From Escherichia phage vB_EcoM_DE16: DNA of 64,000 nucleotides. A program made the position numbers and the translations under genes. Position 1 is the stretch's first letter. Each line of letters begins with the position of its first letter. Positions 603 to 62,755 of the stretch are shown here, piece after piece. The notes beneath the pieces are model-generated. The model saw nothing but the letters and a program-made list of their open reading frames with translations, made no database searches and was not told where the DNA came from. The DNA is taken from the sequence record OP595145.1. One strand, given 5' to 3'.

Positions 603-1221
603 GCCCGAACAATGTTGATAGCTTTCGCCTATGAAAAACCGACACAGAACAAAACTGAATAAATCGCGGTATCGAGCTAATCAACCAGCAAACGAATAAC
701 CATACATCCCAGGGCAACAGGCTGTTAGAGGGCTATTTAGAGCGGTTAAAATCGATCAACAACCAACAACAAACCATCAAAAACACCCTTTTACCTCCTT
801 TCTAGTGCAATGATAACCATTATCATCTACCCATGATTATCTATGCAATATAAGCGCATAACTATAATGTTGATAATAGTTCGCAACAACTAACCAACAA
901 ACAACATAAAACAATAAGCAAACTAATCATAATCAAAGAAATAATAGCAAGATGATTGATAACGACAAACAATCAAACCATGATGAATACTAAGCAAAAT
1001 AACAATAACACGACAAAACAACCAACTAACGAACAATAACAAACGAAACCATTAAAATAATAACTATTAGCAAAATAGTACCTGAATGAAATCATTACAA
1101 AACGAATCATTCACAGAGTCATCATTAGCACGCTATGCCGGACACATAGCGAGCTAATAATAAGCCAACTACACCCCAACAATCATAACCATCGGTGACG
1201 GTTATTTCTTGTTATTGCGTA

Positions 1222-1240
1222 GCTTGCAATAATTGCAAGC
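1222..1240. repeat. perfect palindrome GCTTGCAAT-A-ATTGCAAGC
   Basis: 9-bp arms read directly in non-coding region. Confidence 0.8.
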
Positions 1241-1285
1241 GTAATGACGCTTACACTTATTGCGCTGGCTTATTATTAGCATTAT

Positions 1286-1344
1286 ATGTAATTACCAAGA
1301 TCATAACATTAGCGCAATAACAATAATCATTGTGGTAATTACAT
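1286..1344. repeat. 12-bp inverted repeat ATGTAATTACCA / TGGTAATTACAT separated by ~35 bp
   Basis: exact reverse complements at 1286-1297 and 1333-1344. Confidence 0.8.
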
Positions 1345-2103
1345 AAGGAAACAATTAGCATGGCAATAATTATTGGGGGCGAAATGTTACCGCCACGGGC
1401 GGGAATGTTGAGCACTAAGAAAAGAGATAAACCTTAATCATGGGGGCGTAAATATCCGAGGATTGCCAACGGCGATCCGGCAGGATGTTGAGCAAGTTCT
1501 CTTAAACGTAAATAAAATCAGAAAATTCTTGATTTATTTTGGCTTTTATGTTAATAAACGTTTAAATAATAATCATTCTCATATAAATAATAGTCTGCTT
1601 GTCATGAGCGGGATTAGTTGACAGTGTTCCGTCATATGATGAGGTTGCCAAACCATTGATAAATAAGCGTTTGTGTGATTTATAATCAAGTGGCCCACCT
1701 TGTCGCTATGTTGGCATGAGCCTTGCATAAGTCATTGAATACGAATGATAATTATTCTCATTCGCATGATATTTGGGAATTGTCGCTGCGTGGACCCGAC
1801 GGCCCGAAAATTCGCGTTAAGCACTTCTTACGTATGCGCCATGATTTTTGCCATATCATATTGATTCTATTGGATATTCTTGCCATGATTGCCATGAAAC
1901 AGGGTGTCCCGAAATAATCTCTCCCCGTAGATATTTTGGGTTACTTTTTATACAAGAGTGGGGTGTCAAAAATAATCGGTATATATAGGATAATTGATAG
2001 GAATCCCCTATGATAATTCGATTGTAATTCCCTGAGATTGATCGTATGATGTTGGTGATTGATGATTGCCATGAAAGATGGCTAACGATGAGAGGAGATT
2101 ATC

Positions 2104-59992: not shown

Positions 59993-60059
59993 CAACGCCC
60001 CTTCTCTTCCTAAAATAAAATTTTATGAGGAAGTAGAAGATAATGAATCTAAAGACTAA
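59922..60059 (+). CDS. small protein (45 aa), alternative-frame ORF
   Basis: ATGATG after GGAGGAAG; overlaps the 59822 ORF in another frame. Confidence 0.3.
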   Translation: MMTEKTWEEILAEAQPMEVKKIVNNAPSLPKIKFYEEVEDNESKD

Positions 60060-60435
60060 AACTGTATTAGGTTTTGTTTTAATTGTCGTTCTTATTCTTG
60101 CTGGAATGTTTGCTTATAACAAGATATATGAGTCTGGCTACAAAGATGGTGTTGCCTATCAAACGCAATTGTATCAAGCAGCCCAAGCAAAAGCAAAACA
60201 AGATTTTGATGTTCTTCAAAAAAGAGCAGATGAAGAAAGAGCATTATTAAATACTCAAATAAACAACTTGTCTAAAAACAATGCACAATTAAAAGCAGAT
60301 TTAGAGAAGAAGAAACAAACGATCAATGAGGATACAACGAATTATGCAAAAACTAATTCTGGTAGTATGTCTTGCTTTGCCCCTAATGATGACGGGTTGT
60401 TCATCATCAACAAAAGTTTCCCCAGTTCTTATTGA
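60043..60435 (+). CDS. i-spanin-like protein (N-terminal TM helix plus coiled-coil)
   Basis: VLGFVLIVVLILAGMFAY helix then Q/K/A-rich coiled-coil; overlapped by lipoprotein ORF. Confidence 0.55.
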   Translation: MNLKTKTVLGFVLIVVLILAGMFAYNKIYESGYKDGVAYQTQLYQAAQAKAKQDFDVLQKRADEERALLNTQINNLSKNNAQLKADLEKKKQTINEDTTNYAKTNSGSMSCFAPNDDGLFIINKSFPSSY

Positions 60436-60679: not shown

Positions 60680-62755
60680 GTGGCAAAGAAAAAGGCAGCA
60701 GGTAGTTTAGCTGGAGTAGATATTGAAGTAAAGGCTCAACCAGGTAAACAGACTCTTGCAATGGATTTAATGCCAGAAGTTATGATTTATGGTGGTGCCG
60801 CTGGATGTGTTTCTGCTGAAACGGAATATCTTACAAAAGATGGTTGGAGACAGATTAGTGAATATTCGGGAGAGGATATTTACCAATACAACCCTAAGAA
60901 TAAGCGTTTAGAATTGGTAACACCTTATTTTGTAGAATACGATTTAAATGGAGATAACCTATACAGAATAACAAATGGTGTAGGATTGTTCCAAGAACTT
61001 AGTATGGAACACCGTTTTGTATTCTATAAGAAAAAGAAATCAAAGAAACATTTCGAGATTCTTGTAGGAGATCTTATTGCATTACAGCAAATAGGAAAAC
61101 CACTGCAAGGTTATGTAGAAAATCCATTCGGTAAACGTGTTCCTTTTAACATACCTGGTAAAAAGAGCACTTACTTAAAAATACACGAGGTTATTTCAAC
61201 AGATGATAAGAAATATTGTTTTGAGACTCCAAGCAGTTATATTGTCTTTAGACGTGGCGATCACTGCTTCGTTACTGGGAATAGCGGCAAGTCTCGTCTG
61301 CTATTGCTGAAAGCTTTAAAATACGCCTACAAAGACCCTTTGTTTGGTGGAATACTTTTCCGTAAGAACACCACTGCTCACCGTAAACCAGGTGGTCTGT
61401 TTACAGAAGCAAAACGTTTGTATCTTCCTTTACAACCTCACGTAAAAGAAAGTACAATGGATATCATTTTTGAAGCCACTGGTGGCGGAACCCTCAAATT
61501 TGACCATTTGGAAAACGATAACGTAACCGCAGAAACAAACCATCAGGGTACACAGTATTCAATGGTAGGTTTTGACGAGTTAACCCACTTCACACAGTAT
61601 GAAATGCTCTATCTTCTGGGACGTATGCGTTCAGAGTCAGAAACAAGTTTCATGTTGTGCACATGTAACCCTGACGCAGATAGTTGGGTTTTGAATTGGG
61701 TGTTACCTTATCTTGATGAGGGTGGTTATCCTAGAGAAGATATGTGTGGTAAACAAAAATATTTCATCATTGTTAACGATGAACCTGTTTTTGCTGACAC
61801 ACCTGAAGAACTGAAAGAAAAATATCCAGAAAACTGTTTCATGGAAAACCCTAATACAGGGGAGACAGTTGTTATTGAACCACAAACTTTCGTATTTATT
61901 GGTGGGACAATATTTGATAACCCAGAACTCATTAGGCTTAACCCTAATTACTTAGCACAGCTTAAATCACAAACAGCGATCAAAAGAGCACAGCTTCTGG
62001 ACGGTTGTTGGTTTGCACGTATCCAGAAAGAATCTTTCTTTCAACGTGAATGGTTACATAAAATATCTTATAAAGATGTTCCTAACAATCTTAAACTAAT
62101 GCGAGCATGGGATAAAGCTGTTTCAGTTCCTACAGAAACTTATCGTTATCCAGACTATACAACATCTGTCAAAATGGGTAAAGACCAAGATGGTAATATC
62201 TACATCTTTGGCGACTATGATTATGATGCTGTGGATGAGAAAAGTAAAATTTTCGGAAGGTTTCGAAGACTACCTGGGGAAAGGGATAACCTGATTCTAA
62301 ATCAATGTAAGATTGATGGACCAGAAGTTACAGTAGTTCTTCCTAAAGACCCATCTGGTGCTGGGACAATAGAATATACAGAATCTGCAAAGAAACTTAT
62401 TCTAGAGGGTTTTGTTGTTAAACCAGATGCTATGCCAGGCAACAAGAAAAAGCTTCAGCGTTTTATGCCTTTTAGTAGTGCGTGTCAAAACGGTTTTGTT
62501 TATATTGTTGAAGATTCTTTCCCTAATGTGGAAACTCTAACCCACTTTTATAAAGAATTGGAATCTTTCAATGGTGAAAGATCTACAGCCACTATTAAAG
62601 ATGACATTCCCGATGCTGCTGCTTCTTGTTTTAATACTCTGTCAAAAGAGAATACTTTCAAGGCAGTAGCTATCCCTACAACAACAAATGCTCCTACAGG
62701 ATACAGTAGAATGAACAGTGGATTCCACCAACCGTATAGTGTCCGTAAAAGATAA
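60680..62755 (+). CDS. terminase large subunit, interrupted by in-frame mini-intein
   Basis: after intein removal Walker A GAAGSGKS; Walker B-like VGFDEL; 691 aa precursor next to portal-like gene. Confidence 0.7.
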   Translation: MAKKKAAGSLAGVDIEVKAQPGKQTLAMDLMPEVMIYGGAAGCVSAETEYLTKDGWRQISEYSGEDIYQYNPKNKRLELVTPYFVEYDLNGDNLYRITNGVGLFQELSMEHRFVFYKKKKSKKHFEILVGDLIALQQIGKPLQGYVENPFGKRVPFNIPGKKSTYLKIHEVISTDDKKYCFETPSSYIVFRRGDHCFVTGNSGKSRLLLLKALKYAYKDPLFGGILFRKNTTAHRKPGGLFTEAKRLYLPLQPHVKESTMDIIFEATGGGTLKFDHLENDNVTAETNHQGTQYSMVGFDELTHFTQYEMLYLLGRMRSESETSFMLCTCNPDADSWVLNWVLPYLDEGGYPREDMCGKQKYFIIVNDEPVFADTPEELKEKYPENCFMENPNTGETVVIEPQTFVFIGGTIFDNPELIRLNPNYLAQLKSQTAIKRAQLLDGCWFARIQKESFFQREWLHKISYKDVPNNLKLMRAWDKAVSVPTETYRYPDYTTSVKMGKDQDGNIYIFGDYDYDAVDEKSKIFGRFRRLPGERDNLILNQCKIDGPEVTVVLPKDPSGAGTIEYTESAKKLILEGFVVKPDAMPGNKKKLQRFMPFSSACQNGFVYIVEDSFPNVETLTHFYKELESFNGERSTATIKDDIPDAAASCFNTLSKENTFKAVAIPTTTNAPTGYSRMNSGFHQPYSVRKR
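60806..61282 (+). mobile_element. mini-intein (159 aa) inserted in terminase P-loop
   Basis: starts with Cys (CVSAETEYLTKDG), block-B-like SMEH ... VGDLIAL, ends with Asn followed by Ser (SGKS). Confidence 0.7.

Follow-up and report, generated by a model that had tools for sequence, protein, structure and literature searches.

In mycobacteriophages, inteins are found most often in the large terminase subunit (TerL); two of their insertion sites lie in the Walker A loop, and the inteins splice (Kelley et al. 2016, PMC5050341), and 293 TerL inteins have been listed for actinobacteriophages (Gosselin et al., bioRxiv 10.1101/2025.01.02.630785). Phage terminases and P-loops were already noted as intein hosts by Tori et al. 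(2010, PMC2807308). The defining features of class 3 are the absence of a nucleophile at position 1, Trp B:12, Cys F:4 and Thr G:5 (PMC2807308). The only characterised relative found for the element described here is the AceL NrdHF intein (6ZGQ; Hoffmann et al. 2020, PMC7891396), which has Ala at position 1. Its block B contains S65, H68, R69 and M70, its F:4 residue is C124, with a Pro (P128) four residues on, and its T144-G145-N146 terminus is followed by Ser+1. It has no His at F:13 or G:6 and splices within minutes by a class 3 route with C124 as the branch point; R69 aids Asn cyclisation, T144 positions H68, and the G145H variant is inactive (PMC7891396). We analysed a stretch of 64,000 nucleotides from Escherichia phage vB_EcoM_DE16 (OP595145.1; hereafter the window), in which residues 43-201 of the TerL precursor are, with a probability of about 90%, a self-splicing mini-intein, i.e. 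a Hint domain from which the homing endonuclease has been lost.

The window comes from an E. coli myovirus that is Phapecoctavirus-like (phAPEC8-like, Stephanstirmvirinae). The DNA of its TerL gene is 99.5% identical to the annotated TerL gene of phage EF1-1 and at least 95% identical to about 60 others, and the GTG start is preceded, 4 nucleotides ahead, by AGGAGG. The product matches Pfam Terminase_6N (PF03237; 5e-17) and PHROG 979 'terminase large subunit' (1e-216), with weak matches to Terminase_6C / TIGR01630 at its C-terminus. It has the organisation of the T4-like Terminase_6N family, a P-loop ATPase followed by a C-terminal RNase H-like nuclease, with a Walker A motif that exists only after excision of the insert. 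A preliminary description of the locus had proposed that this insert begins with Cys, ends with Asn and is followed by Ser, and that its removal creates the Walker A motif GAAGSGKS. The codons at the junctions (TGT for Cys43, 60806-60808; AAT for Asn201, 61280-61282; AGC for Ser202, 61283-61285) confirm these residues. Joining residue 42 to residue 202 gives YGGAAG-SGKSRLLL, in which Walker A is G39-A-A-G42-S202-G-K-S205, and intein-free homologues likewise read GAAGSGKS; the expected sequence across the ligated junction is ...VMIYGGAAGSGK... In the precursor, the Terminase_6N match begins at residue 202, which corresponds to profile position 8 (62.7 bits). In the protein spliced in silico, it runs from profile position 1 (69.6 bits, 4e-19), and PF17289 is weakly matched.

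We then compared alleles with and without the insert. Homologues were searched with the full-length TerL, the 159-aa insert having returned 5 fragments only in a word-indexed protein search. The intein-free site of Aeromonas phage vB_AdhM_DL reads VMIYGGAAG-SGKSRLLLIKAL, with the uninterrupted Walker A VMIYGGAAGSGKSRLLL in the wider stretch ...KVDVMIYGGAAGSGKSRLLLIKAL... The occupied site in the window reads EVMIYGGAAG, intein, SGKSRLLLLKAL, the upstream stretch being ...MPEVMIYGGAAG and then 159 aa. A second pair of empty and occupied sites is given by Salmonella phage PVP-SE1, which has no insert (IIGGAAGSGKSYLLQLMPL), and by E. coli phage 19-1-2, which has one (IIGGAAG, large intein, SGKSYLLQLMPL). 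Moreover, among the best 120 database homologues, many metagenomic TerLs of about 505-530 aa carry an uninterrupted G[AS]AGSGK[ST]. The same peptide bond is occupied in 36 homologues by inserts of 146-328 aa, with identity down to about 27%; all 36 start with Cys, end with [TS]-G-N and are followed by SGKS. These inserts are either minis (146-159 aa) or large (246-328 aa). When homologues are ordered by extein identity, those with an insert (66-100%) are followed by some without (62-64%), and then others with (40-53%) and without (45-55%) are found. Presence and absence are therefore interleaved along extein identity, which is the pattern given by a mobile element. In addition, tblastn matches of intein-free TerLs begin at residues 202-219, which supports the start of the C-extein. 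The alignment with intein-free TerLs (vB_AdhM_DL, PVP-SE1 and the metagenomic ones) bears out the proposed precise insertion inside the P-loop, and the segment is not an ordinary conserved part of the homologues, being present or absent as a unit. It is thus an in-frame insertion with colinear intein-free alleles, as is required of an intein. The recurrence of the boundaries, the empty sites and the restored Pfam start are far beyond chance.

A Hint-domain search, which the preliminary description had suggested, was negative with the single sequence (Pfam, NCBIfam and PDB) and positive with a family profile and a structure model. The profile was derived from an alignment of 25 TerL-site inserts (hereafter A1). 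Against the PDB, it matched the AceL NrdHF intein (6ZGQ; E 2e-11) and gave weaker matches to the inteins of Pab PolII and Mtu RecA. AlphaFold2 with A1 gave a single all-beta Hint domain (pLDDT 94.4, pTM 0.86). The top 50 PDB matches of this model in Foldseek are all inteins, bacterial intein-like (BIL) domains or Hedgehog autoprocessing domains, the best being 6ZGQ (E 4.7e-7, TM 0.68). The possibility of a BIL domain was considered and rejected: such domains lack the +1 nucleophile and mostly cleave, a Ser+1 nucleophile is present here and required by the host P-loop, and BIL structures rank below 6ZGQ.

The insert reads CVSAETEYLTKDG...LSMEHRFVF...VGDLIAL...KKYCFETPSSY...HCFVTGN, then SGKS, and its blocks are listed in the table below. 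Block numbering follows PMC2807308; blocks F and G were equated with those of 6ZGQ via the residue numbers in PMC7891396 and not by residue-level alignment, as the C-terminal 46 aa of the insert had no match in the PDB. The block-B-like segment proposed earlier is found as an S-x-x-H motif (S66-M-E-H69) with VGDLIAL after it. The invariant columns of A1 (25 out of 25) are C1, T6, G13, W14, H69, K136-Y137-C138, G158 and N159. H69 is the sole invariant His, and no conserved His is found in blocks F and G of this alignment. The invariant Cys138 at block F:4 was not part of the preliminary description, while its penultimate Gly in place of His (Gly158) is not only present but clade-wide. The claim of a mini-intein also stands: the 159 aa, within the range of about 130-200 aa for minis, contain the splicing domain only, with no LAGLIDADG or HNH match in Pfam, and LAGLIDADG_3-like domains occur in the 246-328 aa alleles of the same site. 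The GC content of the intein is 0.342 vs. 0.385 for the window.

Table. Positions of the TerL gene, its intein and the neighbouring open reading frames (ORFs) in the window.
Feature	Position	Strand	Details
ORF, 98 aa	59385..59681	+	start MPKLKRGRGRP
ORF, 130 aa	60043..60435	+	N-terminal membrane helix; upstream of TerL
ORF, 114 aa	60326..60670	+	other frame, overlaps 60043..60435; lipobox-like LMMTGC
TerL precursor ORF, 691 codons/aa, 78.7 kDa	60680..62755	+	GTG start, stop included; ORF list
N-extein, aa 1-42, ends YGGAAG	60680..60805	+	aligns with intein-free homologue N-termini up to ...GGAAG
Walker A first half, G39-G42	60794..60805	+	sequence
Mini-intein, 159 aa, 18.6 kDa, Cys1...Thr157-Gly158-Asn159	60806..61282	+	boundaries common to 36 homologues; model; profile
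Block A CVSAETEYLTKDG	60806..60844	+	Cys1, putative nucleophile; Thr6, Gly13, Trp14 invariant in A1
Block B GLFQELSMEHRFVF	60983..61024	+	Ser66 B:7, His69 B:10, Arg70 B:11, Phe71 B:12
Block F KKYCFETPSSYIVFRR	61208..61255	+	Cys138 at F:4; Pro142 four residues on
Block G HCFVTGN	61262..61282	+	Thr157 G:5, Gly158 G:6 (usual His replaced), Asn159 G:7
+1 residue, Ser202	61283-61285	+	
Walker A second half, SGKS	61283..61294	+	sequence
C-extein, aa 202-691, from Ser+1 of SGKS	61283..62752	+	remaining ATPase and nuclease domain

The A1 profile was then searched against 1.84 billion proteins, and 12,117 cluster representatives were found at E ≤ 1e-3, with 163 at E ≤ 1e-30. The residue counts given for the clade refer to 180 full-length domains from the best 148 proteins. 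Cys at position 1, His at B:10 and Asn at G:7 are present in all 180. Ser or Thr occupies B:7 in 171 domains and G:5 in 165, Cys occupies F:4 in 178 (with Pro at +4 in 121) and Gly occupies G:6 in 177. Arg is found at B:11 in 95 domains, and B:12 is V, M, I, F or L, with Trp in 2 out of 180. The +1 residue is Ser (104), Cys (48) or Thr (28). Large domains, presumably endonuclease-bearing, are the great majority (169, for 11 minis), and the 180 domains lie in about 160 different sequence contexts. Their sites are often P-loops cut at the same relative position (GPFG/SGKS, GPAG/CGKT, GATG/TGKT). The same intein type is found in the DNA polymerase of Acinetobacter phage ME3 (NDIH/CLSLDTE...VWCVTVPSSY...VTGN/SIN) and in the RtcB ligase of Corynebacterium phage Lederberg (VDIG/CVDADTEY...AYCFTV...ITGN/CGM). 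The intein of the window therefore belongs to a large, mobile and mostly metagenomic clade, characterised by Cys1, [ST]xxH, Cys F:4, [TS]-Gly-Asn and then Ser, Cys or Thr. These relatives in unrelated hosts (DNA polymerase, RtcB ligase and many other ATPases), as well as the LAGLIDADG-like domains of larger alleles, agree with the intein identity first proposed. As Gly is fixed across this mobile family, the penultimate Gly is a trait of the clade and not a sign of decay.

Some members of the clade have no Cys1. Ala1 is found twice in P0261 (102-428 and 526-829, in a DE/CVH helicase motif), Pro1 in P0156 (41-360, GPFG/SGKS) and Lys1 in P0147 (56-370, at a DNA polymerase site), and P0251 (19-343) has Ser at position 1. 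All four proteins retain Cys F:4 and [TS]-G-N, and these domains look like natural derivatives of class 3 type within a clade of Cys1 inteins. Three metagenomic proteins, P0130 (2602 aa), P0159 (2583 aa) and P0201 (2223 aa), each contain 5-6 matches to the intein family; in P0130, few extein residues separate successive inteins (e.g. ...SGN/SGYQ/CHDE...). Positions 76-166 of the PHROG 32482 profile ('PhoH-like phosphate starvation-inducible') match the N-terminal 92 residues of the intein (E 1.4e-11), and this profile evidently holds the same intein type within another P-loop ATPase.

Among known inteins, AceL NrdHF is the best match of the window intein both in sequence and in structure, with about 20% identity in the structural alignment. 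The two have similar sizes (146 vs. 159 aa) and a phage or metagenomic origin. S66, H69, R70, C138, P142 and T157-G158-N159/S of the window intein are at the same positions in AceL NrdHF, and both have a hydrophobic, non-Trp residue at B:12 and no His at F:13 and G:6. With Met at B:12, AceL NrdHF shows that Trp B:12 is dispensable for class 3. Since AceL NrdHF splices rapidly, a penultimate Gly without either C-terminal His is compatible with fast splicing, and since G145H kills it, Gly is the functional state in this clade. However, AceL NrdHF starts with Ala, lacks a nucleophile at its N-terminus and has been proven to be of class 3, whereas the window intein has an invariant Cys1. It is also naturally split, with a GIY-YIG gene between its halves, and inserted in a ribonucleotide reductase, while the window intein is contiguous and lies in the TerL P-loop.

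The Chlamydomonas eugametos ClpP intein also has a penultimate Gly, and a Gly-to-His change is needed for it to splice in E. coli. It resembles the window intein in having a residue other than His before the C-terminal Asn, but the same change abolishes activity in AceL NrdHF. The actinobacteriophage TerL inteins share with the window intein a location in the TerL ATPase domain, including Walker A, and the existence of plus and minus alleles in related phages; some have an active LAGLIDADG endonuclease. They differ by their host protein at P-loop sites a and b (terminase_1, TerL1, vs. Terminase_6N here), by their 'classic' sites (GK/T, Lys-Thr, and one residue away, vs. G/SGKS, three residues upstream, here), by the host bacteria (actinobacteria vs. 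Enterobacteriaceae) and by their type (class 1 or WCT class 3 vs. Cys1/Cys-F:4/Gly-Asn). The class 3 WCT inteins (MP-Be DnaB, Msm DnaBi1, Mch DnaB1; PMC2807308, PMC5222942, PMC7664689) have Cys F:4, Thr G:5 and Ser or Thr at +1 in common with the window intein, together with a preference for helicase-like ATPase P-loops, including those of phage terminases, and a proposed phage origin. In contrast, 34 out of 37 of them (original set) have no position-1 nucleophile, they carry Trp B:12 and the penultimate His is usually kept, whereas the window intein has Cys1, Phe B:12 and Gly G:6.

The catalytic roles proposed here are drawn from the invariant residues and from the solved structure of AceL NrdHF; it is from these that we infer splicing and each of its chemical steps. 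The 78.7-kDa precursor would be unable to bind ATP, as Gly42 and Ser202 of its Walker A motif are held apart. Once made, the folded intein would bring both junctions together and the Gly42-Cys43 peptide bond would be converted into a thioester. The N-extein would be passed to the hydroxyl of Ser+1 (Ser202), cyclisation of Asn159 would free the 18.6-kDa intein, and an O-to-N shift would give a 532-aa, 60.1-kDa terminase with an intact P-loop, GAAGSGKS. In block B, His69 and Ser66 would strain the N-terminal scissile bond. Thr157 would keep His69 positioned, and Arg70 (B:11) may stand in for the missing penultimate His by aiding Asn159 cyclisation. Two thiols, Cys1 and Cys138 (F:4), would be available for the first step, and both may be used, Cys1 forming the first thioester and Cys138 either carrying the acyl group towards Ser+1 or acting as a backup for it. 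A disulfide between Cys1 and Cys138 might even gate terminase maturation by redox state. Whatever the chemistry, the intein must leave, because the P-loop exists only after excision.

Several points weigh against an active intein. Searched alone, the insert matched no Pfam or NCBIfam family at E ≤ 1, and gave only noise in single-sequence phmmer against the PDB. Neither the penultimate His nor the Asp at F:4, both standard in class 1, is present; the sole characterised relative found has Ala1, so that the role of Cys1 is deduced; and Arg B:11, present in just over half of the clade, is absent from the TerL minis of Vibrio phages, so that the proposed compensation for His is not general. The failure of the curated models is a matter of model sensitivity: Pfam Intein_splicing (PF14890) is matched by 5 of the 25 insert relatives (best E 1e-3), and LAGLIDADG_3 by three large ones. 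Splicing of this TerL is read from sequence and from a model, which also leaves some room for a degenerate intein, or an ordinary insertion domain, retained in the mature terminase, or for an intein capable of cleavage only. The loss of the homing endonuclease, the fixation in the whole subfamily, the unusual C-terminal Gly-Asn and the lack of a Pfam match would agree with a retained insert. Nevertheless, with GAAG/SGKS split, an essential ATPase left unspliced would have no P-loop, all the junction and catalytic residues are without variation, insert and extein evolve at an equally slow pace, and the intein-free homologues indicate that the host protein needs nothing at this site. We therefore consider retention highly improbable. 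An interruption in the nucleic acid rather than in the protein (a frameshift, a group I intron, or an artefact of sequencing or assembly) has a precedent in related TerL genes, which do have DNA insertions with HNH ORFs (DL, FKP3, 19-1-2). Here, though, the insert is in frame and free of stops, the Hint domain that it encodes folds with high confidence in the model, its protein sequence is conserved in more than 130 independent phage genomes, and no other ORF of at least 50 aa, out of frame or antisense, is found within 60806..61282; such an interruption has a negligible chance of being the explanation. The mini-intein is thus genuine and precisely bounded, and very probably active. At its C-terminal end, Asn159 is followed by Ser202, and the +1 residue is Ser, Cys or Thr in 180 out of 180 relatives.

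As for the class of this mini-intein, a plain class 1 reaction would involve Cys1 alone, forming a thioester passed directly to Ser+1, with Cys138 as a helper in place of the F:4 Asp that carries no acyl group. The invariance of Cys1 in 36 out of 36 TerL alleles as well as in the whole clade, the class 1-type [ST]xxH of block B and the hydrophobic, non-Trp B:12, as in class 1 (PMC7891396), speak for it, and from its invariance in the clade Cys1 is likely used. But the class 1 helpers Asp F:4 and His G:6 are replaced clade-wide by Cys138 and Gly158, and Cys F:4 with Thr G:5, the hallmark of class 3 (PMC2807308), is invariant here as much as Cys1. In addition, the members with Ala1 (twice), Pro1 or Lys1, together with AceL NrdHF, suggest that, in this scaffold, the F:4 Cys is able to initiate splicing. 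Overall, we hold Cys1 acting alone to be less likely than not. The same variants would fit a class 3 reaction, in which Cys138 attacks Gly42-Cys43 and a branched thioester on block F is transferred to Ser+1, Cys1 being unneeded as a nucleophile. The proven class 3 status of the nearest solved relative, with the same S..HR, C-x3-P and TGN/S motifs, is in line with it, as is Ser+1, typical of class 3 (PMC2807308), and three WCT inteins keeping Ser1 or Cys1 have been noted by Tori et al. (PMC2807308). This route is nonetheless unlikely: Cys F:4 and Thr G:5 are there, but position 1 has a nucleophile and B:12 is Phe71 instead of Trp, and a dispensable Cys1 should not persist in about 97% of the clade. 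Our best guess is a two-thiol mechanism, by relay or redundancy, which we favour over pure class 1 and pure class 3, both of them serious rivals. Tentatively, the clade as a whole, with Cys1, Cys F:4 and [TS]-Gly-Asn, could represent a natural class 1/class 3 hybrid with two working thiols. The acyl group may be relayed from a Cys1 thioester to a Cys138 branched thioester and then to Ser+1, or the two thiols may be redundant initiators.

We also looked at the distribution of the insert in related phages. By tblastn, 146 phage records contain it, with an identity of 80% or higher in about 130; they include genomes of the phi92-like and phAPEC8-like groups, relatives from Klebsiella and Citrobacter, and copies that are more distant. 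Among 15 relatives, the identity of the intein (71-87%) tracks that of the C-extein (68-90%), which indicates vertical inheritance under purifying selection, as expected where failure of the intein would be lethal. A recent acquisition was rejected, as the GC difference is small and the divergence tracks that of the extein; the intein is old and vertically inherited in the subfamily. In the TerL minis of Vibrio phages (146 aa), the inteins are only 26-31% identical for exteins at about 50%, which suggests separate invasions or a faster drift. A six-frame hmmsearch of the window found this intein alone and no second copy. The mini-intein is fixed in Stephanstirmvirinae (phAPEC8- and phi92-like phages), where it is transmitted vertically, and would be the remnant of a mobile, LAGLIDADG-carrying intein targeting the P-loop Gxx[G]/[SCT]GK[ST].

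TerL genes of this family are also a hotspot for other selfish elements. In Aeromonas phage vB_AdhM_DL (1393..4292), the intein-free TerL is interrupted, past residue ~125, by a stretch of about 1.4 kb that holds an HNH_3 endonuclease ORF. In Klebsiella phage FKP3, TerL is annotated as two coding sequences with an HNH gene in between. E. coli phage 19-1-2 (2411..5156) has, besides its large P-loop intein, a TerL split in two coding sequences, with an HNH homing endonuclease gene just downstream. These DNA-level interruptions are probably group I introns or split genes.

Immediately upstream of TerL, the two overlapping ORFs of 130 and 114 aa look like an i-spanin/o-spanin pair. The colinear genes of the BASEL phages JohannJBalmer and EmilieFrey are annotated as spanins, and in the window the stop of the o-spanin gene overlaps the TerL ribosome-binding site. 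These spanin genes separate TerL from the 98-aa ORF, whose product is 36% identical (E 2e-9) to that of the ORF directly before TerL in vB_AdhM_DL (1048..1392) and has no Pfam match; it is possibly a small-terminase or DNA-binding partner. Some near-identical genomes bear the deposited names 'Acinetobacter phage vB_AbaM_ABPW7' and 'Campylobacter phage B15 / A145'; for a phage of the phAPEC8/phi92 type, hosts of these genera seem doubtful.

Although TerL inteins of other phages are a well-known kind of element, this instance appears to be unrecorded in the databases and in the open-access literature. The source names of the TerL protein clusters are only 'terminase large subunit' or 'hypothetical protein', no link to a TerL intein was found in those open-access genome papers on Stephanstirmvirinae that were listed, and a 2024 paper states that no inteins are reported in coliphages (PMC11162368). 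In the BASEL S5 Table (PMC8594841), the intein counts are 0 (EmilieFrey), 1 (JohannJBalmer) and 2 (PaulScherrer). The TerL genes of EmilieFrey (MZ501063, 676..2760) and JohannJBalmer both carry this intein. As EmilieFrey is listed with 0, the fixed TerL intein was not counted, and these phages have further, variable inteins elsewhere.

More than 130 phAPEC8-like and phi92-like phages, several of them used in phage-therapy and host-range studies, are annotated with a plain TerL of 691-694 aa, while the mature enzyme probably has 532 aa. TerL is a standard phylogenetic marker, and an unrecognised intein distorts its alignments. Moreover, the whole clade, with its thousands of metagenomic representatives, escapes the curated models of inteins and Hint domains. 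Because the host is an easily manipulated E. coli phage, the question of the mechanism is directly testable, and a small Ser+1 intein splicing in E. coli could serve as a ligation tool. The clade joins a class 1 nucleophile, a class 3 catalytic triad and a Gly-Asn terminus, and knowing which thiol it uses would bear on the evolution of class 3. In this clade, Cys1 members (about 97%) coexist with others that have Ala, Pro or Lys in its place, AceL NrdHF among them. Grafting experiments suggested that the step from class 1 to class 3 is improbable (PMC7664689). If both thiols do work in this clade, it would be an evolutionary bridge by which class 3 inteins could have arisen from class 1.

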